Assembly: GCA_043808175.1 (NCBI GenBank) | Contig: JAZDFE010000007.1 | Span: 16,099 to 80,098 of the forward strand | Direction: 5' to 3' | Length of the DNA: 64,000 nucleotides | Source of the DNA: Candidatus Omnitrophota bacterium | GTDB taxonomy: Bacteria > Omnitrophota > Omnitrophia > Omnitrophales > Aquincolibacteriaceae | Part shown: positions 16,398 through 63,230 of the stretch, one piece after another | Numbering within the stretch: the stretch's first letter is position 1 | Layout of the letters: every line of letters starts with the position of its first letter | Notes under the pieces: model-generated | The model's database searches: none | Seen by the model: only the letters and a program-made list of their open reading frames with translations | Told to the model about the DNA's origin: nothing | Program-made: the position numbers and the translations under genes

Positions 16398-17945
16398 ATG
16401 GCGGGAAAACGGAAGATTCACATATTTGACACCACGCTGAGAGACGGCGAGCAATCACCCGGGGCGTCGCTTACTCCGGATGAGAAGCTGACGATCGCGC
16501 GCCAGCTTGAGCGGTTGAATATCGATGTGATCGAAGCCGGGTTTCCGGCATCTTCACTTGGGGAGATGAAGGCCGTCTCCATGATCGCGGAAAATGTGCG
16601 TAAGCCCGTGATCTGCGGTCTTTCGCGCATGATCCCACGGGATATCGATGCCTGCCGACGGGCCCTTGAAAAGGCCGCGAGAAAACGCCTGCATCTTTTT
16701 CTCGCAACCTCCCAGATTCATCGTGAGTTCAAGCTCAAAAAAAACAAAAGAGAGATCTTAGCGATGGTAGAACAGAACATCAAATCTGCGGCTAAGGATT
16801 TTAAGCAGATCGAATTTTCGCCTGAGGATGCGTCACGTACCGAACGGGACTTTTTGGCGGGGACCGTCCGGGCCGCGATCCATGCGGGGGCCACTTCGAT
16901 CAATATTCCGGATACTGTGGGTTACACGGTCCCGCAGGAATTCACGGAGCTGATCCGTTTCTTGATCAAGAAAAACCCCGAATTGGGCAAAAAGGTCGTG
17001 CTTTCGGTTCATTGTCATAACGACCTCGGTCTCGCGACAGCCAATTCCTTGGCCGCCGTCCTGGCGGGTGCGAATCAGGTGGAGTGTACGGTGAATGGGA
17101 TTGGCGAACGTGCGGGGAACGCTTCGCTGGAAGAGATCGCCATGGCGATCGATACGCGCGCGGATTTCATGAATTGTTACACAGATATCAAACTCTCTGA
17201 GATCACCAAAGCTTCGCGGTTGGTATCTAATTTGACGGGAATGGTCGTTCAGCCTAACAAAGCGATCGTCGGGCGCAATGCCTTCTGGCATGCTTCCGGC
17301 ATCCATCAGGACGGGGTGCTCAAGAAGCGCCAGACCTATGAGATCATGGACCCGAAAAAGATCGGGCTTTCCGGCAACCAGCTGATGCTCGGGAAACTCT
17401 CGGGCAAGCACGCCTTTGAGGTGCGTGTGAAAAAGCTCGGGTTCCGCTTGGGGCTCAAGGAACTCGATCAGGCTTTCGTTCAATTCAAGGCTCTCGCGGA
17501 CAAGAAGAAATATATTTTTGACGAAGATCTCGAGGCCATCTTGCAAAATGAAATCGCCAAGATCCCGGAGACCTGGAAGCTGGCATCCATGAAGGTGGTG
17601 TCTGAAACCGGCGCAAAGCCTCATGCTCAGATCAAGCTTTCTTATGAAGGCAAGGCCAAGCAAGCCGTTTCGAACGGAGACGGTCCCGTGGATGCTTGTT
17701 ACAAGGCCATTGAGAAGATCGTCAATTCCAGGGCACAACTTATTCATTACGGTCTGCAATCGGTCACGAGCGGCAAAGATGCTTTGGGCGAAGTGCTGGT
17801 TAAGCTTGAGATCGGTGGCAAGGAAGTGACCGGTCGCGGCACGAGTACTGACATTATTGAAGCCAGCGTACGCGCCTATCTTTTCGCGATTAATAAAGTT
17901 TCGGCGAACTCTCAACGGGCCGCGAGCCAGTCTTCCCCGGTGTGA
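16398..17945 (+). CDS. leuA: 2-isopropylmalate synthase / (R)-citramalate synthase family. The start is refined to MAGKRKIHIFDTTLRDGEQ.
   Basis: The HMGL-like TIM barrel (HCHNDLGLATANSLAAVLAGA) and a C-terminal LeuA dimerisation/regulatory domain are present. Confidence 0.8.
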   Translation: MAGKRKIHIFDTTLRDGEQSPGASLTPDEKLTIARQLERLNIDVIEAGFPASSLGEMKAVSMIAENVRKPVICGLSRMIPRDIDACRRALEKAARKRLHLFLATSQIHREFKLKKNKREILAMVEQNIKSAAKDFKQIEFSPEDASRTERDFLAGTVRAAIHAGATSINIPDTVGYTVPQEFTELIRFLIKKNPELGKKVVLSVHCHNDLGLATANSLAAVLAGANQVECTVNGIGERAGNASLEEIAMAIDTRADFMNCYTDIKLSEITKASRLVSNLTGMVVQPNKAIVGRNAFWHASGIHQDGVLKKRQTYEIMDPKKIGLSGNQLMLGKLSGKHAFEVRVKKLGFRLGLKELDQAFVQFKALADKKKYIFDEDLEAILQNEIAKIPETWKLASMKVVSETGAKPHAQIKLSYEGKAKQAVSNGDGPVDACYKAIEKIVNSRAQLIHYGLQSVTSGKDALGEVLVKLEIGGKEVTGRGTSTDIIEASVRAYLFAINKVSANSQRAASQSSPV

Positions 17946-18952
17946 AAAAAGACAAGCCCAATTCCCCATCAAAGAATTTAAAGGTCAATTGGACTAGTCC
18001 TGGCAACCTTCAGTCAGGAAAAAATAGATGCCAGGACAAGACCTTCAAGCTTTACGGAATCTTCGGGTACCCCCTTTCGCACACTCTTTCTCCGACCATG
18101 CACGAAGCCGCGTTCCGCAGGCTCGGGATCGACGCCCACTATATCGTTCTGGAATTGATTCCCGCCGATTTCAAAAAGCTCATGCGCCAATCCTCCGAAC
18201 TTTCTCTTTCAGGTTTTAATGTCACAGTGCCCTACAAAGAAACAGTGATGAAAGATCTCGCCGGCATCCGGCCGGAAGCGCGTGTCATCGGCGCGGTCAA
18301 TACGGTTTTCAAACAAGGGAAACGGTGGATAGGTACCAATACGGACATGGAAGGTTTTCTTACGGCGATCATGAAGGAAGGCGGGTTTCGCCCGTCCGGG
18401 AAAAAGGCCGTGATCCTCGGGGCCGGTGGCGCGGCACGCGCGGTGGTTTATGGTCTTTCGAGAGAGGGAATCCGGGAGATCCTGATCGCGGATTGCTTTC
18501 CCCAAAAAGCCCAGAAGATCGCGAGTGACATGCGGAAACTTTTCAAACGGGTGAATTACTATGCTGCAATGGCCGGAACACCGGAGGTCAAGGAGGCTCT
18601 TCAAAAAGCCGATGTTATTATCAACGCGACTCCGATCGGGCTGAAGTCTCAAGACCCAAAGGTGGTCCCGGAAAGATGGATCCCTCGAGCGGGAAGGGCT
18701 CGAGGAACTCCGCGGGGGCGAGCCTCGAAAAGATCAAGCTGCGGCTCGATGCTTTTTATGGATCTTATTTATAATCCGGCCGTGACACCTTTTTTAAAGA
18801 TGGCAAAAAAGAAAGGGCATCGGACCCTAAACGGGCTCGGGATGCTGCTTCATCAAGGCGCTCGGGCTTTGGAGCTTTGGACGGGACGAAAGGCGCCGGT
18901 GGGCGTGATGCGCCGGGCGCTTCTTAACGCTCTAAGCGAACGGGGGAAATGA
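17942..18952 (+). CDS. aroE: Shikimate dehydrogenase carrying two insertions. One is an N-terminal family-1 repeat element of about 30 aa. The other is an internal Arg-rich insert of about 20 aa.
   Basis: AroE signature is present (LYGIFGYPLSHTLSPTMHEAAF ... ILGAGGAARAVVYGL ... NATPIGL ... DLIYNP). The GTG start overlaps the leuA stop (GTGA). Confidence 0.8.
   Translation: MKKDKPNSPSKNLKVNWTSPGNLQSGKNRCQDKTFKLYGIFGYPLSHTLSPTMHEAAFRRLGIDAHYIVLELIPADFKKLMRQSSELSLSGFNVTVPYKETVMKDLAGIRPEARVIGAVNTVFKQGKRWIGTNTDMEGFLTAIMKEGGFRPSGKKAVILGAGGAARAVVYGLSREGIREILIADCFPQKAQKIASDMRKLFKRVNYYAAMAGTPEVKEALQKADVIINATPIGLKSQDPKVVPERWIPRAGRARGTPRGRASKRSSCGSMLFMDLIYNPAVTPFLKMAKKKGHRTLNGLGMLLHQGARALELWTGRKAPVGVMRRALLNALSERGK
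17954..18040 (+). repeat. Family-1 intragenic repeat, copy A. It is about 87-90 bp, lies in-frame in the aroE 5' coding region and translates as PNSPSKNLKVNWTSPGNLQSGKNRCQDKTF.
   Basis: By eye it is roughly 75% identical to copies at about 39917-40005 and 40244-40331. An internal inverted repeat is present: gtcctggca (17996-18004) pairs with tgccaggac (18028-18036). Confidence 0.8.
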
Positions 18953-26651: not shown

Positions 26652-28751
26652 GTGGTAAAAGCAAAGAAGGGCGTGAAAGCTTCAAAGACTGCGAAGGGAC
26701 CCAAGCATCTGGTGGTCGTGGAGTCACCGGCCAAGGCTAAAACCATCAATAAGTTCCTTGGCAAAGATTTCCATGTTGTAGCGTCCATGGGTCATGTCCG
26801 GGATTTACCGAAGAGCCGAATGGCTGTCGATATCGAACATGGTTTCACCCCGGAATACATCATCATCCGGCGGGCCCTCAAAACGGTCAAACAACTTAAG
26901 AAGGACGCTCAGGATAAGGAAACCATCTATGTCGCGCCCGATCCGGACCGTGAAGGCGAGGCCATCAGCTGGCATCTTGCCCATATCTTTTCAGAGGAAG
27001 GCCACGGCCCGAAGATCCTCCGGGTGGAATTCAACGAGATCACGAAAGAGGCCGTGTTAAAGGCCTTTAACCATCCCCGCAAGATCGACATGAATCTTGT
27101 GAATGCACAACAGGCGCGCCGCATTCTGGACCGCGTGGTCGGATATCAATTGAGCCCGCTCCTTTGGCGCAACGTCGGCCGGGGACTCAGCGCAGGTCGC
27201 GTGCAGTCGGTGGCGCTCAGATTTATCGTGGATCGCGAGCGCGAGATCCGGAAATTCATGCCGCAAGAATACTGGACACTGGACGCAAAGCTTTCCGCTG
27301 CGGAAGGTCCCGAGCAGTCAAAAGTTTTTCTTTCCCGTCTTTCTCAGATCGACAAAGCAAAACCCGAACTCAAGACTCAGGCCGAGATCGACCGAATCAA
27401 GCAAGAACTCCACCAGCTTCCCTTCCAGGTTTCGGATATCGAAAAGACCGAAAAGCGCCGCAACCCGCAGGCGCCTTATTCCACAAGCAAACTCCAGCAG
27501 GAAGCTTACAGCCGGCTCGGGTTCTCGGCGACGAATACAATGCGCATCGCGCAGAAGCTTTATGAGGGCGTGGAGCTCGGAGACGAAGGCAGCGTCGGTC
27601 TTATTACTTATATGAGAACAGATTCCGTGAACGTTGCTGTTTCCGCGCAAGAGGAAGCCGTGCGCTATATTCGGGAGAAATTCGGGAAAGATTATCTTCC
27701 TAAAAAACCGCCGGTCTACAAATCCCGCAAAGGCGCTCAGGAAGCTCACGAAGCCGTCCGCCCGACCTCGGCCTTTCGCATCCCGGATTCGGTGAAGGAT
27801 TTTCTCGAAAGCGACGAGTTGAAACTCTACGAACTTATCTGGAGGAAATTCCTGGCGTCGCAAATGGTGCCTGCGGTCGATGAACACACCGCTATTTCGA
27901 TCCTGGCCGGCGAAAGATACAAATTCCGTACGACCGGCAAGCGCAATCTCTTTCTGGGATTTACCGCTGCCTTCGGCGAGATCAAGATCGAAACAGAGAA
28001 TTCCAAGGAAGCCGAAGAAGACGAAGTTCCGGAAGCGTCTGAGCTTCCTGATCTCAAAGTGGGACAGAAACTGACGCTTCATGAACTCCTGGGCGAGCAG
28101 CACTTTACGAAACCGCCGGCGCGATTCAATGACGCGAGTCTGATCAAACTGCTCGAAGAAAAGGGCATCGGCCGCCCGAGTACCTACGCGCCCACGATCT
28201 CGACCATCCTGGGGCGTATTTATGCCGAGCGTAAGAACGGCGCGCTGATACCCACCGAACTTGGCAAGACGGTCGTGGATATTTTAGTGCGGCATTTCCC
28301 GACGATCCTGGATGTGGAGTTTACGGCGCTTATGGAAGAGGAGCTGGATGAGATCGAAGAAGGGAAAATGGAATGGGTCAAAGTCCTGAAGGATTTTTAC
28401 GGCCCTTTCAGCGAGTTTCTAGCGCGCGCGCAGACCGAAATGAAAAGCGTCAAGCAGGCACCCATCCCCACGGATCACAAATGCGACTTGTGCGGCAAAC
28501 AGGTTTTTATTAAGTTCGGGCGGTTCGGCAAATTCATGGCTTGCTCCGGATTCCCGGAGTGCAAGTATACGCGGTCTCTCCCGACAGGGTTCTTTTGTCC
28601 GGAGCCGGGTTGTGGCGGAGAATTGGTGAAACGCCGGGCCAAAGGTCGCCGGGCGTTCTACGGTTGCTCGAATTATCCGAAGTGCACGTACGTGGTCAAT
28701 GAGCTGCCGAAAAAAGAAGACGCCGCCGAAGCTTCGTCCGAAGCACCATGA
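26652..28751 (+). CDS. topA: DNA topoisomerase I. The start is refined to GTG, giving MVKAKKG after a GGAGG ribosome-binding site.
   Basis: A Toprim domain is present (HLVVVESPAKAKTINKFLG). A type IA core and C-terminal zinc ribbons are also present (CDLCGKQ...CSGFPECKYT...CPEPGCGG...CSNYPKC). Confidence 0.9.
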   Translation: MVKAKKGVKASKTAKGPKHLVVVESPAKAKTINKFLGKDFHVVASMGHVRDLPKSRMAVDIEHGFTPEYIIIRRALKTVKQLKKDAQDKETIYVAPDPDREGEAISWHLAHIFSEEGHGPKILRVEFNEITKEAVLKAFNHPRKIDMNLVNAQQARRILDRVVGYQLSPLLWRNVGRGLSAGRVQSVALRFIVDREREIRKFMPQEYWTLDAKLSAAEGPEQSKVFLSRLSQIDKAKPELKTQAEIDRIKQELHQLPFQVSDIEKTEKRRNPQAPYSTSKLQQEAYSRLGFSATNTMRIAQKLYEGVELGDEGSVGLITYMRTDSVNVAVSAQEEAVRYIREKFGKDYLPKKPPVYKSRKGAQEAHEAVRPTSAFRIPDSVKDFLESDELKLYELIWRKFLASQMVPAVDEHTAISILAGERYKFRTTGKRNLFLGFTAAFGEIKIETENSKEAEEDEVPEASELPDLKVGQKLTLHELLGEQHFTKPPARFNDASLIKLLEEKGIGRPSTYAPTISTILGRIYAERKNGALIPTELGKTVVDILVRHFPTILDVEFTALMEEELDEIEEGKMEWVKVLKDFYGPFSEFLARAQTEMKSVKQAPIPTDHKCDLCGKQVFIKFGRFGKFMACSGFPECKYTRSLPTGFFCPEPGCGGELVKRRAKGRRAFYGCSNYPKCTYVVNELPKKEDAAEASSEAP

Positions 28752-28761
28752 GCCACGAAAT

Positions 28762-29640
28762 ATGAATAAGCGGGTTGAAGATTTTCTGAATTTTCTGACG
28801 ACCGAGAAGGGCGCCTCGGAGCATACGACCAAAAATTACGGGATCGATCTCCGGGAGTTCATGAAATTCATTGCGGAGAAAGAACTCCAGGGCTTGACCT
28901 ATCTTGATATCCGTTCCTTTCTGGCGTTCTTAAAGACCCGCGAATATAGTAAAAGTTCTATTTCCCGCAAACTTGCCTGCCTCCGTTCGTTCTTTAAATA
29001 TCTAGTGCGCGAGAACGTCCTGGCGCAAAATCCCGCGGCGGGGATCGCGACCCCGAAAAAGGAAAAACGACTCCCTTCTTTTATGAATCTTGACGAGATT
29101 ACTAAACTTCTCGACGCTCCGGCCAAGAACTCCTGGGAAGAAAAGCGCGATAAGGCGATCCTGGAGATGCTTTACAGCTCCGGGCTTCGCGTGAGCGAAC
29201 TTGCGGGGCTCAATCATGACGATCTGGATTTTTTCGGAGGCCTGGTCCGGGTGCGTGGCAAAGGGAAAAAAGAACGCATTGTCCCCGTGGGGCAAACGGC
29301 GTTGAACAGCTTGCGCGCCTATTGGGACATGAAGGCGCCGCGAGAAATCGCAAACGTGATCAAAAAGCCTCTTTTTCTCAGCCGGATCGGGAGCCGTCTT
29401 ACCGACCGGAGTGTCCGGCGGATGATCCTGAAATATGTGAAACGGACGGGGCTTGGAAAAGAGATCTCACCCCACACGTTCCGTCACTCCTTCGCGACCC
29501 ACATGCTCGATCGCGGAGCGGACCTGCGGAGCGTTCAGGAGCTTTTGGGACATGCAAACCTCTCGACTACGCAGATCTATACGCATGTGACAACCCAGCG
29601 TCTTAAGGACGCCTATACGGCGGCGCATCCGAGGGCGTAA
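28762..29640 (+). CDS. xerC: Tyrosine site-specific recombinase XerC/XerD. The start is refined to MNKRVEDFLNFL.
   Basis: The catalytic R..HxxR..Y region is present (HTFRHSFATHMLDRGADLRSVQELLGHANLSTTQIYTHV). Confidence 0.8.
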   Translation: MNKRVEDFLNFLTTEKGASEHTTKNYGIDLREFMKFIAEKELQGLTYLDIRSFLAFLKTREYSKSSISRKLACLRSFFKYLVRENVLAQNPAAGIATPKKEKRLPSFMNLDEITKLLDAPAKNSWEEKRDKAILEMLYSSGLRVSELAGLNHDDLDFFGGLVRVRGKGKKERIVPVGQTALNSLRAYWDMKAPREIANVIKKPLFLSRIGSRLTDRSVRRMILKYVKRTGLGKEISPHTFRHSFATHMLDRGADLRSVQELLGHANLSTTQIYTHVTTQRLKDAYTAAHPRA

Positions 29641-36174: not shown

Positions 36175-36307
36175 TGATAGCCCAAACTTTTCATTTATTT
36201 TCCAAAACGGTAGTTTGGACAGCCCCAATTTCAACTCCGTTGAAATTGATAGATATTGGGACAGTCCAAGTCACCATCCATGAAGAACAAAGGAAGACTT
36301 GGGCGCT
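36175..36307 (+). repeat. Family-2 intergenic repeat, copy R3. It is hairpin-rich and ends at the start codon of the next heptosyltransferase.
   Basis: It shares the gtccaagtc...agacttgggcg module with the copy at 63150-63192. Hairpins: caatttcaa/ttgaaattg and ccaagtc/gacttgg. Confidence 0.6.
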
Positions 36308-37330: not shown

Positions 37331-38289
37331 ATATTCTTGTCGTGACGTTGAGCAATTTCGGGGACGTGATCCTGACGACCCCCGTGATCATGGCACTTGC
37401 CCGGAAATATCCCGAGGCTCGGATCACGGTGGTGGTGGGGCCGCGCGCGAGAAGTGTTCTTCAGAGAAGCCCCGATATCCATAAGATCGTGATCTACGAC
37501 AAGAAGGCTTCTTTCCTGGAAAAATTAAAATTCATCGCAGAACTTCGCAAAGTAAAATATCACTGCGTCGTGGACCTGCGTAATACCGCCATTCCGTTCC
37601 TGGTCTCCTGCGGCAAGAAAACCCCTCTTTTCAGGAAATTCACCAAGGTCAACATGCGGGATCGTCACCTCGAAATGCTCGCGACAGTGGAACCCGGCAT
37701 TCCCCATCCCTCTCCTTTTCATTTTTTTAACCAAGAGGATGAGATCTTTGCGATGCGCACTCTGGATGCTGCGGGGATCACGGAAAAGAAAGGATGGATC
37801 CTGGTGGCGGCAGGGGCGGCCAGCGAGAGAAAACGGTGGCCGGTTCAATCCTTTAAGGAAGTGATCCAAGCGCTTCACGAGAGGACCGGCAAGAAGATCC
37901 TCCTGGTGGGAACCCTTAATGAAAGACCGGTGGCCGACAGCATTCTGAAAAAACTTCCAGGAATCGTCGGGATCCTTTGCGGTGACCTTGTTTTGCCCGA
38001 GACGGCAGCGCTTATCGCGAACGCTTCGCTTGTGATCGCTAACGACAGCGCGATCATGCATCTTGGGTTCGAATTGGGCACGCCGACTGTCGGGATCTTC
38101 GGACCGACAGACCATGAGAAATACGGACACGAAGGTCCGAAATTCCGCATTGCGCGGGAAAAGGCCCAAGGTTGTGCCTGCAGGTCCGATCAATTGCCTC
38201 GCGCCGAGCGGAGTTGTTTTCACGGACTTAAACCCGAAAAAGTGATCGGACTTTCTTTGGAGCTTCTGAATGCCACTCAATCTTCCTGA
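37327..38289 (+). CDS. GT9 heptosyltransferase. The true ATG start, MNILVVTL, overlaps the upstream stop (ATGA). The listed 404-aa ORF from 37075 is an out-of-register extension.
   Basis: GT9 motifs are present (MNILVVTLSNFGDVILTTPVIMALARKYPEA and NDSAIMHLGFELGTPTVGIFGPTDHEKYG). Confidence 0.8.
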   Translation: MNILVVTLSNFGDVILTTPVIMALARKYPEARITVVVGPRARSVLQRSPDIHKIVIYDKKASFLEKLKFIAELRKVKYHCVVDLRNTAIPFLVSCGKKTPLFRKFTKVNMRDRHLEMLATVEPGIPHPSPFHFFNQEDEIFAMRTLDAAGITEKKGWILVAAGAASERKRWPVQSFKEVIQALHERTGKKILLVGTLNERPVADSILKKLPGIVGILCGDLVLPETAALIANASLVIANDSAIMHLGFELGTPTVGIFGPTDHEKYGHEGPKFRIAREKAQGCACRSDQLPRAERSCFHGLKPEKVIGLSLELLNATQSS

Positions 38290-40666
38290 CACTCCGCGCA
38301 TTCTCATCACGCGCACCGATCGCATCGGGGACCTCGTCCTCACCACGCCGCTCTTCAAAGCCTTGCGGGAAAAATTCCCGAAAGCCTGGATCGCGGCGGT
38401 TGTGTTCCTCGAACACCGCGAAATCGTACAGGAAAATCCTTTTCTGGATGAGGTGATCCTCTATGATAAAAAAGGGAGCGAGCGCGGTCTTTGGGGGCAG
38501 TTCTGTTTTAGCCAAAAACTCCGGAACAAAAAATTTAATGTGGTGATCCATGCCCATGGTACGAACAGGATGCATCTTGCCGCGTGGTTCGCGGGGATCC
38601 CCCTGCGCATAGGTTACGCGCGCCGCGCGCCGTGGACGCTCACGCATGTTCATCCTTATAATAAAAAAGAAGGAAAAAAACAGGAGGCCGAATATCTCTT
38701 TGAGCTTCTGGATCTTTTGGGCGTGACCCCTCCCAAAGAGATCGAGACTTTTTTCCCCATCACGGACCGATCCGTCCGCTCTTTCGAGAGTTTGCGTGTG
38801 TTTCGCAAAATCCCGTACGATCGGCCCTGGATCGTTCTCAATCCCTCGGCGAGCGATGTGACCAAAATGTGGCCGGCGGAGCGCTTTGCCGAACTTGTGA
38901 CCCGGATCCAAAAGAATCATCCAAGCGTTTTTATTGCGATAGGGACCGTCCAGGACCGTTCTCTCATCGAAAGATTGATCAAAAACACTCCGGTTCCGGT
39001 CTTTGATCTGAGCGGAAGACTTTCCCTTGGAATGCTAGGCGCGCTTTTGAAGCGATCGGCCCTGCTTGTCTCCAACGATTCCGGGCCCGTGCATATCGCG
39101 ACGACGGTTGGCACGCCGGTGGTTTCCATTTTTGGGAGGTATGAGGCAGGTCTTGGGCCCAACCGCTGGCAACCGCTTGGGGAGCGTTCGCGCGTGGTCG
39201 CGAAGGATGTTTCGCGCATTCCGGAAGCCGTGCGGAAGTTCACCTACATCGATGAGATCACGGTGGATGAAGTTTTTCGGACCGCAAATGATCTATTGGG
39301 TAGTAGCGGCAAAAAGTTTTTGCGTGAAGAGGAGCCTTCCACGAAAGGGATATCGGGTGGAGGAGGGAGGATGGCAGAAACGGTTCCTCGCCATCCGCCA
39401 TCCGTCATCCGCCATCCGCAAAAGATCCGCAGGGTTTTGATCGTGCACCCCTACGGAATCGGGGATCTTCTCTTTGTGACGCCAGTTATGCGGGCGCTTC
39501 GTCTCGTCCCGACGGTCGAGACCGTCGATCTTCTTTTGGGATCCCGCACGCGGGAGGTCGTGGAGAATAATCCTCACATCAATGATATTTTCGTCGTGGA
39601 TAAGGACCGCGCTCATCGTCAGACTTGGCTCGAAAATCTTCGCGACCACTGGAAACTGGGCCGGAAACTCCGGGCCAAGCATTACGACCTGATCCTGGAT
39701 TATTCGCTGCAGCGCGAACATGCTTTTTGGGGTCGGTTCTTTCTCGGTATTCCGAAATGCGCGGGGTTTGCGTATAAAAAGCGCGCGACATTCCACAATA
39801 TCCGTTTTCCACTTCCAGAGGGGTTCTGGAAACGGCATGCCGTGGATTTTTATTGTGATCTTGCGGAGGCAGCCAGGATTCCCGTGGAAGACCGTTTTCT
39901 GGAATATTTTTTTCCCAAGCCCCATTCTCCATCAGAAGGATCAAAGGTTAATGGGACTAGCCCTGGCGACCTTTTAGGAAAAGAAAATAGATGCCAGGGC
40001 AAGCACGAATCTTTGATCGAAGCAGAGATTGCCGGAAAGTTAAAACTTCTGCCGGAACGTTTTCTCGCGGTCGCTCCCGGCGGCGGGGATTCGTGGGGGA
40101 AGGAAGCTTCTTTCAAGCGCTGGCCTGTGAAGTATTTCGCGGCATTGATCGAAAAACTTCAAATGGAACGAAACATCCGCGGCGTCGCCATCCTGGGCAG
40201 TCGTTCCGAGCGGGCGCTGTGTGAAGAATTGCAGGCGATGATCGAGCCCCATTCTCCATCAAAAGCATCAAAGGTTAATGGGACTAGTCCCGGCAACCTT
40301 TTAAGAAACGAAAATAGAAGTCAGGACAAGCCACCCTCAGTCGTGCTGGCGGGGGAGACAAGCCTCACGCAAACGGCCATGGTCCTCAAAAAGTCCGCGC
40401 TTTTTGTCGGCAACGACGGAGGCCTGGTTCATTTGGCGCATGCGCTTCATGTGCCGCTCCTGGCTTTTTACGGGCCCGTGCCGCCCGAAGTGTACGGACC
40501 CTACCCGCCATCGCCTGATGCGATCGCCATCTTCAAACGAGGATTAAAATGCCGTCCGTGTTACTACAAATTCCGCTATCATAAAAAGTGTCCAACGATC
40601 GCGTGTCTTACAGATTTAAAGCCGGAAGAGGCGCTTGAACAGACAAAGGGTCAGGTGCCTTTTTGA
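38270..40666 (+). CDS. 798-aa ORF with two complete GT9 heptosyltransferase domains in tandem. The second begins at an in-frame AGGAGG ribosome-binding site plus ATG at 39371. The second domain carries two family-1 repeat insertions.
   Basis: Domain 1 reads ILITRTDRIGDLVLTTPLFKALREKFPKA ... NDSGPVHIATTVGTPVVSIFGR. Domain 2 reads RVLIVHPYGIGDLLFVTPVMRAL ... GNDGGLVHLAHALHVPLLAFYGP. There is no stop between the two domains. Confidence 0.7.
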   Translation: MPLNLPDTPRILITRTDRIGDLVLTTPLFKALREKFPKAWIAAVVFLEHREIVQENPFLDEVILYDKKGSERGLWGQFCFSQKLRNKKFNVVIHAHGTNRMHLAAWFAGIPLRIGYARRAPWTLTHVHPYNKKEGKKQEAEYLFELLDLLGVTPPKEIETFFPITDRSVRSFESLRVFRKIPYDRPWIVLNPSASDVTKMWPAERFAELVTRIQKNHPSVFIAIGTVQDRSLIERLIKNTPVPVFDLSGRLSLGMLGALLKRSALLVSNDSGPVHIATTVGTPVVSIFGRYEAGLGPNRWQPLGERSRVVAKDVSRIPEAVRKFTYIDEITVDEVFRTANDLLGSSGKKFLREEEPSTKGISGGGGRMAETVPRHPPSVIRHPQKIRRVLIVHPYGIGDLLFVTPVMRALRLVPTVETVDLLLGSRTREVVENNPHINDIFVVDKDRAHRQTWLENLRDHWKLGRKLRAKHYDLILDYSLQREHAFWGRFFLGIPKCAGFAYKKRATFHNIRFPLPEGFWKRHAVDFYCDLAEAARIPVEDRFLEYFFPKPHSPSEGSKVNGTSPGDLLGKENRCQGKHESLIEAEIAGKLKLLPERFLAVAPGGGDSWGKEASFKRWPVKYFAALIEKLQMERNIRGVAILGSRSERALCEELQAMIEPHSPSKASKVNGTSPGNLLRNENRSQDKPPSVVLAGETSLTQTAMVLKKSALFVGNDGGLVHLAHALHVPLLAFYGPVPPEVYGPYPPSPDAIAIFKRGLKCRPCYYKFRYHKKCPTIACLTDLKPEEALEQTKGQVPF
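39917..40005 (+). repeat. Family-1 intragenic repeat, copy B. It is in-frame in GT9 domain 2 and translates as PHSPSEGSKVNGTSPGDLLGKENRCQGKHE.
   Basis: It is homologous to copies A and C. The internal inverted repeat is gccctggcg (39960-39968) pairing with tgccagggc (39992-40000). Confidence 0.8.
40244..40331 (+). repeat. Family-1 intragenic repeat, copy C. It is in-frame in GT9 domain 2 and translates as PHSPSKASKVNGTSPGNLLRNENRSQDKPP. Its hairpin arm is degenerate.
   Basis: By eye it is about 80% identical to copy B over some 88 bp (cccattctccatca...aaggttaatgggactag...aaaatagaag). Confidence 0.8.
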
Positions 40667-52210: not shown

Positions 52211-52350
52211 TCCCAATTTTTATCAATTGAAGCGAAGCGGTCCCAATCCCAATCAATCGAAGCGTAGCTGAGATTGGGGCCGTCTCGACTACCATAAATG
52301 AAAAGAAAATAAAAGTCGCGACGGAAATTGGGGCAATCCTGATTACCATT
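52209..52350 (+). repeat. Family-2 intergenic repeat, copy R1, between hpf and ptsN.
   Basis: It shares two modules with copy R2 at 63085-63230: gtcccaa-N4-tatcaatt...agcgg and ca(t)aa(a)tgaaaagaaaa-aaaag...cggaaattgggg. Confidence 0.6.
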
Positions 52351-52412
52351 CATCAAAAAAAATGAAAGTCAGGATAGTTCCACAACCTTTTTCAATCAGG
52401 AGGAATACATCC

Positions 52413-57396: not shown

Positions 57397-58155
57397 ATGA
57401 AGGTCATCATTCTTTGCGCGGGATATGCGACGCGTCTTTATCCGCTGACCGAGAATATGCCGAAGCCCCTGCTCTCGGTGGGCAATAGGCCCATTCTGGA
57501 GTGGATCCTGGAGCGTGTCCAGAAAGTTCAAGGCGTTCAGACCGTTTATCTCGTGAGTAATCAAAAATTCGCCGGGCATTTTGAAACTTGGGCGGCGAAG
57601 ATGAAATATCCCTGGCCGATCGAGGTCGTGAACGATCACACTACGAGTAATGAGACGCGTCTTGGAGCTATCGGGGACCTGGCGTACGTGATCGAAACGA
57701 AGAAGGTCAGTCCTTGCGACCTTTTAGTGATCGCGGGAGATAATTTCTTCGATTTTGACCTGGCGTCGTTCGTTCATTTTGGAACAAAGAAACGGCCGCA
57801 CGGAGTGATCGCGGCCTATGATGTTGGGGATAAAGAGCTGGCCAAACGCTACGGTCTTGTCAGAATCGATGCGCAGGGAAAGATCCTGGAATTTCAGGAA
57901 AAACCACCCCAACCGACCACCACGCTGGCCTCGAGTGGTATTTATTGGCTTCCCCAGGAAATTTGGAGCCTGCTTGACAGGTATATCACAAGCGGCCATA
58001 ATACCGACCAACCCGGCCATTATATGCGTTGGCTGGCTGAAACATCGGGTCTCTTTGCTTTTTCTCTTAAGGGAAAATGGTTGGATATCGGTGACCTCGA
58101 CTCTTATCGGAAAGCCAACGCCATTGTTAATACCCCAACAAATCCAAAGGAGTAA
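57397..58155 (+). CDS. Sugar-1-phosphate nucleotidyltransferase.
   Basis: The NTP-transferase N-terminus is present ([39 protein letters not shown]). Confidence 0.75.
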
Positions 58156-58162
58156 CACCACT

Positions 58163-59350
58163 ATGAAAAAAGGGCATTATTTCTTCACATCTGAATCTGT
58201 TTCCGAGGGACATCCGGACAAGGTTTGCGACCAGGTTTCGGACGGGATCCTGGACGCCTACCTTGCGGGAGATCCTACGTCGCGCGTGGCCTGCGAATGT
58301 CTGGCCACGACTGACCGCTTGACCATTGCCGGCGAGATCACGAGCAAAACCAAGGTCGATGCCGAAAAAGTTGCGCGAAACATCATCCGGAAGATCGGTT
58401 ATGTGGATCCCAAGATCGGTTTCGATTATAAGACCTGCCGGGTGGATATTGCGCTCCATACCCAGTCGCCCGATATCGCGATGGGCGTGGATACGGGCGG
58501 CGCCGGGGACCAAGGCATGATGTTCGGGTTTGCGTCAAATGAGACAAAAGAACTTATGCCGCTTCCGATCATGCTCGCTCAAAAACTCGTCCGTTATTTG
58601 ACCGCCGTTCGTAAAAGCGGCAAGATCAAGTATCTTCGGCCGGATTCGAAGAGCCAAGTTACGGTGGAATACGATGGCGATGTGCCGGTGCGCGTGGATG
58701 CCGTGGTGCTTAGTTCTCAGCATGATGGGGATGTGACGCTTCCGACGATCACCAAGGACCTGACCGAAAAAGTCATCAAGAAGGTCATCCCGGCCAACTT
58801 GATGGACAAGAACACCAAGATATTCATCAATCCGACCGGACGTTTCGAGGTAGGCGGACCACATGGAGACACAGGTCTTACGGGTCGCAAGATCATCGTG
58901 GACACCTATGGCGGCATGGGCCGTCACGGGGGCGGCGCGTTCAGCGGTAAGGATCCTTCCAAAGTGGACCGCTCGGCCGCGTATTTTGCCCGTTATGTCG
59001 CAAAAAATATCGTTGCCGCCGGCATCGCCAAGCGTTGTGAGATCCAGGTTTCCTACGCGATCGGCGTGGCAGAACCCGTTTCGATCCGCGTGGAAACATT
59101 CGGGACCAGCAAGTTCGACAACGAAGAGATCGTGGAAGCGGTCCGGAAAGTTTTTGATTTTACGCCTAAAGGCATCATCGCGACCTTGGATCTTCGCCGT
59201 CCTATCTACAATAAGACCGCCGCGTACGGGCATTTTGGCCGTTCGGAAGCCGGTTTTACATGGGAAAAAACGGATGCGGTCGATCAACTTCGAAAAGCGC
59301 TGAAGCTCAAAGACAACTGTGGTTGCAGAAAAGTCGTCTGTGCAGCTTAA
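58163..59350 (+). CDS. metK: S-adenosylmethionine synthetase. The start is refined to [20 protein letters not shown] after an AAAGGAG ribosome-binding site.
   Basis: MetK signatures are present ([31 protein letters not shown]). Confidence 0.95.
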
Positions 59351-63079: not shown

Positions 63080-63084
63080 CTGTC
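63058..63084 (+). repeat. Left copy of a roughly 26-bp direct repeat (gaaaaaaatcttagacaATGActgtc). It contains the pyk stop codon. The right copy at 63221-63247 contains the ABC-F start codon.
   Basis: A 16-bp exact core, aatcttagacaatgac, is present in both copies. Flanks differ at 2 positions. Confidence 0.75.
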
Positions 63085-63230
63085 CCAACACCTATCAATT
63101 TCTACGTAGCGGCACTTGATTCTGTTTCAAAATGAAGGTAATCAGTGCCGCCCAAGTCGCCATTGATTAAAAGAAAACAAAGACTTGGGCGGAAATTGGG
63201 CGGTTATCATCAACCCTAATGGAAAAGAAT
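63085..63230 (+). repeat. Family-2 intergenic repeat, copy R2. It has an 11-bp perfect stem (ccgcccaagtc/gacttgggcgg) and a second hairpin (gcggcacttgatt/aatcagtgccgc).
   Basis: It is homologous to R1 (52209-52350) and R3 (36175-36307); see the shared modules listed there. Confidence 0.65.

Follow-up and report, generated by a model that had tools for sequence, protein, structure and literature searches.

The window analysed here, a stretch of 64,000 nucleotides (nt) of contig JAZDFE010000007.1 from a Candidatus Omnitrophota bacterium, contains three copies (A, B and C) of a short repeated unit, each lying in frame within an open reading frame (ORF). The copies make up an ungapped 87-nt repeat family in the window (family 1), and the unit proper is exactly 84 nt long, with the form YCCMATTCTCC...CCAGGRC-AWG in an ungapped alignment (A2) of 46 canonical family-1 copies. 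It consists of two stem-loops with a 23-nt loop in each, and it is small, with no coding capacity for an enzyme. The hairpin reported for this locus by an initial annotation is the 3′ (right-end) hairpin of this unit, which is an 84-nt non-autonomous mobile element of Omnitrophota. The features of the three copies, in window positions, are the following.

17957-18040, + strand: copy A, 84-nt unit (28 codons), in frame as an N-terminal extension of the aroE ORF 17942-18952
17951-17956, + strand: left flank (target) of copy A, GACAAG, its six bases identical with the final six of the unit (18035-18040)
17958-17992, + strand: 5′ hairpin (helix 1) of copy A, CCAATT (17958-17963) with AATTGG (17987-17992) around a 23-nt loop; the pair of A2 columns 10-40 is A-T
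17997-18037, + strand: 3′ hairpin (helix 2) of copy A, the one initially annotated, arms 17997-18005 and 18029-18037 around a 23-nt loop
39920-40003, + strand: 84-nt unit of copy B, in frame within ORF 38270-40666, in the second of its GT9 (heptosyltransferase) domains
39921-39926 with 39950-39955 (helix 1) and 39960-39968 with 39992-40000 (helix 2), + strand: helix arms of copy B
40247-40330, + strand: 84-nt unit of copy C, in frame and in the GT9 domain that also holds copy B
40248-40253 with 40277-40282 (helix 1) and 40287-40295 with 40319-40327 (helix 2, degenerate), + strand: helix arms of copy C

The initial annotation had described a 9-bp stem with compensatory substitutions between the copies. 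The arms of copy A, gtcctggca and tgccaggac, are indeed perfect reverse complements, while their coordinates had been given one base too low. The arms of copy B, gccctggcg and tgccagggc, lie exactly where they had been placed, with C-G at stem position 2 where copy A has T-A and a G.T (G.U in RNA) wobble at position 9, and the six of nine positions said to pair in copy C proved to be six Watson-Crick pairs, accompanied by one further G.U pair among the nine. Chance similarity among the copies was ruled out by the profile search results given below and by a 32-nt degenerate repeat pattern, which matched three times in the window and not once in 100 shuffles. Single units A, B and C each fold into the same two hairpins (RNA z-scores −2.9, −2.3 and −1.6, respectively), and the antisense strand folds at least as stably as the sense strand. 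A search of the window with Rfam covariance models gave no match at the gathering score, and the sole match at E<=10 (bxd_4, E=3.3) is ascribed to chance.

Mobility and location inside protein genes

Beyond the window about 100 further copies were found in metagenome-assembled genomes (MAGs) of Omnitrophota and in metagenomes, the copies being ascertained with patterns that fixed columns 30-47. A scan of species-representative genomes gave 24 loci in 15 MAGs, and all 14 of these loci with a phylum name in the record were Candidatus Omnitrophota/Omnitrophica. A scan of metagenomes, anchored outside the stem, gave 50 loci, 6 of which were chance pattern matches without the element, and a profile built from the collected copies gave 104 matches with 61 unique full-length copies. 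Viral contigs and PLSDB plasmids contained no match to the unit, and no description of such elements in Omnitrophota turned up in the literature searched.

Several of these loci (designated L with a number) are syntenic with the window at 77–90% identity and provide both filled and empty alleles of the same sites. Copy B is absent in L074, L068/L008, and L011 and has an orthologue in L056; copy C is absent in L056, L068/L008, and L011 and has an orthologue in L074; copy A has orthologues in L031 and L049; and L014 carries a unit in a DUF3108 gene at a site that is empty in the window. All these differences are exactly 84 nt, with the insertion point after an AAG Lys codon every time, and because related genomes differ by precisely this length at empty sites, the unit is mobile. 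The claim of the initial annotation that a structured mobile element is present thus agrees with the presence/absence of the 84 nt, as it does with the fold and the pairing statistics of the following section. Orthologous units are 86–88% identical, while the flanking coding DNA is 75–91% identical. An independent insertion is present in L011 13 codons downstream of site B, and L005 and L059 contain the same element lineage, recognized by a unique loop GAAGCAGGAG, at points two codons apart in one gene, forming reciprocal empty sites with the structures ATG[...]ATG and AAG[...]AAG. Tandem arrays with an 84-nt period occur in L002 (three units), L007 (two), and L053 (two). In L056 (about 1955-2250, compared with window 40004-40042) one unit has the left junction of site B and the right junction of the L011 site with the intervening 36 nt lost, which looks like recombination between two nearby units.

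Among 31 copies of the first scan, 27 lie in sense orientation and in one single frame inside long ORFs of 131–1107 codons. The hosts known from all searches are unrelated protein genes, among them aroE and genes for GT9, DUF3108, histidine-kinase, helicase-like, and UvrA-like proteins. Copy A corresponds to residues 6–33 of shikimate dehydrogenase, where the Pfam domain Shikimate_dh_N begins only at residue 40. The sole plausible start of this ORF is the GTG at 17942 (17942-17945, GTGA), which overlaps the stop of the upstream LeuA/citramalate-synthase-like gene, and as the stretch from the unit to the conserved domain offers no in-frame start codon, a functional aroE requires that copy A be translated. 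Copies B and C are both in a double heptosyltransferase of 798 residues, within its second GT9 domain. In comparison with PDB structures 1PSW and 3TOV copy B falls between aligned blocks, and copy C forms about 28 extra residues in the loop preceding the conserved L-A-G-x-T-x-L segment.

The choice of frame follows largely from the sequence of the unit and of its target. Stops are present in all antisense frames and in one sense frame of the unit, and the host target in coding DNA is mostly an in-phase Asp/Gly-Lys codon pair: of the matches to the motif G[AG]CAAG in the window, 45 are in sense phase 0, 6 and 4 in the two remaining sense phases, 9 between genes, and 36 in antisense. Most of the in-frame bias is thus accounted for by target phase combined with purifying selection, with no need for a coupling to translation. 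The lengths seen were 84 nt, nested 84 nt, an addition of 21 nt, and half units of about 42 nt. An intron, an intein, or translational bypass was rejected, because a segment that is removed or skipped would need neither an open frame nor lengths in multiples of three.

In three different histidine-kinase genes (L002 3947-4203, L022 3447-3534, and L043 2153-2243) the units stand at one structural position, directly after the N-box (N-A-x-x-A-I/M-K; DNA ...ATCAAG, ATTAAG, or GCCATG). The gene of L002 has three tandem units there, and in metagenome contig L039 the profile search detected only two at the equivalent place. The 21-nt addition is a mini-hairpin (CCTGCCTGCCGGACAGGCAGG), itself a multiple of three, inside the right arm of hairpin 1 of some units. 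Left-half units are about 40 nt long, or about 63 nt with the mini-hairpin (for example, L056 1176-1225); further loci with an extra mini-hairpin or a half unit are L009 3148-3257, L034 7548-7656, L041 835-900, and L009 1793-1860.

Structure and covariation of the hairpins

RNAalifold analysis of the 46 copies independently returned two hairpins, formed by A2 columns 47-54 with 80-87 (eight solid pairs) and by the 5′ columns 8-12 with 38-42. Eight of the nine stem pairs initially annotated were therewith retained over the 46 copies, while the ninth, A-T (columns 55-79), is non-standard in 16 of them. When both helices were imposed, 94.8% of cells paired, in comparison with 90.7±0.6% in shuffles and 16–43% in slid-partner controls, and changes on both sides occurred in 6 pairs, which 0 of 500 shuffles reached; as the copies share descent, such shuffle statistics overstate the significance.

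The pair on which the initial annotation had based its argument (columns 48-86) was not evidence by itself in three copies. In the 46 copies it is UA in 16, UG in 16, CG in 9, and CA in 5, and in the 30 independent insertions used for the association tests it is T-A in 8, T-G in 11, C-G in 8, and C-A in 3, so that its two sides are not significantly associated (Fisher p=0.47). The same pair has nevertheless switched on both sides in orthologues, being C-G in copy B and T-A in L056, T-A in copy C and C-G in L074, while L031 carries a C.A intermediate. More double changes in the stem are C-G to G-C (L032/L054/L041), T-A to C-G (L035), G-C to A-T (L019_6332), and G-C to C-G (L034). The strongest covariation lies in the 5′ hairpin, which had been overlooked: columns 10-40 are C-G in 22 and A-T in 20 copies with four exceptions, and no other column pair has mutual information as high (0.74; Fisher p=5e-6 for independent insertions), while the mutual information of column 10 with other subfamily markers is at most 0.26. 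According to these data the view that the covariation reflects selection on the stem as a structure finds support in the whole stem and no significant association in the pair first proposed, and selection is the probable cause.

It had also been asked whether the loop is more conserved than the stem, as a protein-recognition site would be. The data answer this in part: the ACC beside the left arm and the GAAAAT equal the stem in conservation, while columns 59-65 are the most variable of the unit. Summed over columns, the entropy amounts to 14.9 bits for codon position 1, 12.1 for position 2, and 8.4 for position 3, and outside the stems and the search anchor to 9.1, 9.9, and 5.2 bits, respectively. 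Third codon positions thus vary least, which is the reverse of purifying selection on a peptide and indicates a constraint on the nucleic acid. The target of a diversity-generating retroelement was considered and rejected, the variation not being adenine-specific.

Target choice and the wider superfamily

The left flanks of the 30 independent insertions have the consensus A(63%) G(50%) G(67%) R(67%) C(93%) A(100%) A(80%) G(90%) at positions −8 to −1, which matches the 3′ end of the element itself, and positions +2/+3 are CC in 53%, like its 5′ start. Insertion takes place immediately after (G)RC-AAG or after a family-specific NNG. The last three bases of the unit follow the flank: position −2 is A in both flank and end in 23 insertions and T in both in 5, with one mismatch (p=5e-5), and an additional insertion has ACG as both flank and end. 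At flank position −5 the base tends to match the element's own R (p=0.015), and the identity between flank and end often reaches 5–8 nt.

The repeated trinucleotide differs among subfamilies (CCG, CGG, TCG, TAG, TGG, CAG, and CTG) and pairs with internal bases, being largely complementary to those just 5′ of the foot of the right hairpin, as in CGGT..ACCG, CCGT..ACGG, CGAT..ATCG, and CCAT..ATGG. This foot complementarity was found in 7 of 7 subfamilies with G or C at −2, and A.A or T.T identity where −2 is A or T; in family 1 the foot pairs are T45-A89, G45-C89, and A45-T89. A pairing of flank position −5 with the left arm (column 48) was also considered, and a hand count shows no association. 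Loop column 59 (18009 in copy A, where column 89 is 18039) is usually T, almost always so in AAG copies, and of the 7 independent copies flanked by ATG or ACG 5 have C or G there, a relation to the flank that is not Watson-Crick.

Family 1 has many relatives of the same architecture. The window contains an intergenic two-hairpin 84-nt family (TCCCAAT...ATTGGGGC...), whose stems are unlike those of family 1 yet complementary, at the following places.

52211-52377, + strand: family-2-like elements, intergenic and nested, the outer one being 52211-52240 plus 52325-52377 and the inner 84-nt unit 52241-52324, which sits after GCGG and ends in ACGG
36178-36261, − strand: family-2-like element, intergenic, stem GTCCAAAC / GTTTGGGC
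about 63083-63230, + strand: related element, intergenic

Elsewhere, family-1 units themselves contain in-frame nested units of a second 84-nt family (TCCCAAT...GTCAGGATAG), placed after ACTAG or AAATAG/AAATGG, and these nested units repeat their own flank trinucleotide as TAG/TAG or TGG/TGG. The right-hand stems of the relatives are wholly different in sequence and still complementary (GTCCTGGC, ATCCTGAC, GTCCTTGTC, GTCCAAAC, GTCTCGAC, ATCCCAAC, and GCCCAAGTC), and the left hairpin behaves in the same way. In a 30-row MAFFT alignment of the superfamily (A4) both-side changes were present in 9 of 11 stem pairs, with 71 double-change cells in comparison with 24.1±4.3 in shuffles (0 of 500) and a covariation score of 0.60 in comparison with 0.27 in shuffles and 0.05–0.11 in slid controls. 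One internal mismatch (A4 columns 45-88) is itself kept in 22 of 30 rows.

Mode of movement, rival explanations, and known systems

The explanation that is considered best, and that is held with moderate confidence as a whole, is that the unit is handled as a folded single strand by an enzyme acting in trans and is tolerated in frame. The hairpins would remain complementary by serving as cis-acting recognition features of this folded strand, and the likeliest agent would be an enzyme of HUH/Y1 type, IS200/IS605-like or similar to the transposases associated with repetitive extragenic palindromes (REP; the transposases are termed RAYT). The unit would insert directly after a target like its own 3′ end, (A)GGRC-AAG, the three bases in front of the unit recurring as its last three, and the right hairpin would pair through the bases at its 5′ foot with the cleavage/target trinucleotide. 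Insertions in phase and in sense, with 28 codons and one open sense frame, would be translated as a hydrophilic loop or terminal extension and tolerated, while antisense and stop-containing phases would presumably be lost. Of this account, the boundaries of the unit, its mobility and in-frame location, the two hairpins with their covariation, the target consensus, the identity of flank and end, and the complementarity of foot and end are observed, while translation of the unit, selection as the cause of the covariation, and the enzyme type are inferred. A more far-reaching proposal, which is possible and rather doubtful, is that of an undescribed superfamily of modular 84-nt hairpin elements whose target trinucleotide is read by foot pairing, that is, of DNA-guided single-strand transposition wholly in trans, with one branch specialized on in-phase Lys codons and with proteins growing by 28-residue increments, nested insertions included.

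Several observations weigh against movement as a folded single strand, in addition to the shared descent of the copies already mentioned. No transposase of any kind, including Y1/HUH TnpA or RAYT, was found in the 64-kb window, which encodes only housekeeping genes and one recombinase, and no long autonomous element (a left-end module without a right-end module within 4 kb) was found in 534 kb searched. Even within a single lineage (L005 and L059) the final three bases change with the target, and the flank trinucleotide looks like a true 3-bp duplication, though IS200/IS605 elements make none. Six independent ATG-flanked copies keep T45 and so have a T.T mismatch at the foot, a base that the search pattern had fixed; a left-end guide was looked for and rejected, as the sequence 5′ of hairpin 1 changes independently of the target. 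Standalone family-2-like relatives occur in both orientations relative to genes with no clear strand bias, and in family 1 G.T cells on the sense strand outnumber C.A cells by 26 to 15, a weak asymmetry. The sole recombinase of the window is an XerC/D-like tyrosine recombinase (28699-29640), situated after dprA and topA.

The last asymmetry is what would be expected if the hairpins act in mRNA, where the stem-loops would influence how stable the host message is, how translation pauses on it, or how RNases process it. Every family-1 copy lies in sense within a transcription unit, orthologous copies are conserved as much as or more than the flanking coding DNA, and compensatory switches have occurred in situ, which are all in keeping with such a role. 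The sense orientation is, however, explained by the antisense stops and the in-phase bias of the target motif, the antisense strand is at least equally stable when folded, relatives of the same architecture are intergenic and in both orientations, no Rfam model matches, and the host genes are functionally unrelated with no common regulatory logic visible, so this role is judged unlikely.

Equally unlikely is a conventional MITE (a miniature transposable element with inverted repeats) moved by a DDE transposase with a 3-bp target-site duplication, in which the hairpin would be incidental or a protein-binding palindrome. The small size of the unit and its lack of coding capacity would suit this explanation, and so would the copying of the preceding three bases by the final three, seen for AAG, ATG, ACG, TAG, TGG, CGG, CCG, TCG, CAG, and CTG, as also in L005 and L059, which share a lineage and yet have ATG/ATG and AAG/AAG, respectively. 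The unit has, however, no terminal inverted repeats: its ends, YCCMATTCTCC and GCCAGGRC(AAG), share no common inverted repeat beyond 3 nt in alignment A2, and they belong to two different hairpins. The target is like the 3′ end of the element over about 8 nt, with flank position −5 following the element variant, and the duplicated trinucleotide co-varies with the hairpin-foot bases across subfamilies, which a protein-specified target would not predict.

It is still less probable that the compensatory changes are unselected and that hairpin-templated (quasi-palindrome) correction or gene conversion restores the complementarity. Orthologous sites with different subfamily markers (L045 and L037; L061 and L044/L019) suggest conversion or replacement, and many double changes are shared by descent. 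Against this, at least seven wholly different stems at the same position stay complementary, yet the conserved A4 mismatch, which correction should remove, persists, and conversion tracts would often split columns 10 and 40, which are 30 nt apart, yet these are paired in 26 of 28 scored independent insertions. A selected protein module, with a functional 28-residue peptide and the hairpin as a codon by-product, is very improbable despite a frame that is open in nearly all copies and always the same and a recurring motif K-V-N-G/W-T-S-P-G-N-L, as the low variability of third codon positions already contradicts it, most differences between orthologous copies fall at codon positions 1 and 2, some copies are intergenic, contain stops, or are 86 nt long, and a 31-position peptide profile matched only 11 of 1.84 billion representative proteins, which add a few more host proteins. 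The search of a 57-residue peptide dimer against a 5.8-billion protein set gave no candidate sharing three 5-residue words.

Movement as a folded single strand remains the preferred explanation, and its subject can be set beside several known kinds of elements. The closest are Rickettsia palindromic elements (RPEs), hairpin repeats that lie in frame in unrelated genes and whose mechanism is described as unknown (Ogata et al. 2000, 2002, as given in a review, PMC10969869). Like the unit, RPEs are short hairpin repeats without a transposase, often in frame in unrelated housekeeping genes, with a conserved-looking peptide apparently tolerated at protein surfaces and with no known mobilizing enzyme. 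They are about 100–150 bp long and belong to obligate intracellular Alphaproteobacteria, while the unit has exactly 84 nt and belongs to Omnitrophota; about half of RPEs or fewer are in frame, in comparison with the 27 of 31 copies here; and the Omnitrophota family is set apart by a modular build of two hairpins, the defined target (G)RC-AAG, a 3-nt flank repeat with the associated end and foot relations, tandem 84-nt arrays, in-frame nesting of a second 84-nt family, and a larger intragenic share of copies. Unit length and host phylum argue against common descent with RPEs, the comparison being one of descriptions.

The ends of IS200/IS605 elements, palindrome-associated transposable elements (PATEs), and REP/RAYT systems share with the unit subterminal hairpins conserved in structure and not in sequence, and precise presence/absence. 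Insertion directly 3′ of a short specific sequence is a likeness in the insertion point, and the repeated trinucleotide may represent either C_L = C_R or a true duplication. In IS608, each hairpin has guide bases 5′ of its foot that read the cleavage site (PMC3201880), and the unit partly resembles this rule in that bases 5′ of a hairpin foot are largely complementary to the cleavage/target bases. Unlike IS200/IS605, the unit has no TnpA/RAYT gene found in the window, no left-end guide co-varying with the target, and a flank trinucleotide that follows the target and is repeated at the end; unlike REP sequences it has no GTAG/CGTC tag, and most of its copies are intragenic rather than extragenic. 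MITEs, among them Correia, ERIC, and Coxiella QMITE1/2, sometimes fuse in frame with genes (PMC5896051, PMC10969869). They are small, non-autonomous, and dispersed with short flanking direct repeats and occasional in-frame fusions or C-terminal extensions, like the unit, but they have terminal inverted repeats and are mainly intergenic, whereas the unit has two different hairpins in their place and in family 1 the copies are overwhelmingly within genes and in a single phase. Integron attC sites are similar in being single-strand hairpin sites with structure kept over sequence and with conserved unpaired bases; the unit differs from them by having no RYYYAAC/GTTRRRY core sites and no cassette ORF and by being dispersed in genes and not arrayed at attI.

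Selfish DNA inside working protein genes is known mainly from Rickettsia, where the mechanism was never worked out. The Omnitrophota family offers a second, independent, and much cleaner system: its unit has exactly 28 codons and a defined target, filled and empty alleles occur naturally, copies are found in tandem and nested, and there are many subfamilies in which stems and flank trinucleotides co-vary. In this system both how such elements choose their sites and whether they create new protein segments are directly testable, and it could point to the moving enzyme. In practice, 84-nt in-frame length differences between Omnitrophota orthologues are to be read as mobile-element insertions and not as errors of assembly or annotation.

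Two further observations concern the window itself. Among its ORFs of at least 120 codons 51 of 54 are on the + strand and the GC skew is positive throughout, so that the window is probably one replichore arm and the orientation of the units relative to genes is inseparable from that relative to replication. The S-adenosylmethionine synthetase ORF (57818-59350, 510 codons) has Pfam domains starting only at residue 121, which points to either an overcalled start or a long N-terminal extension.

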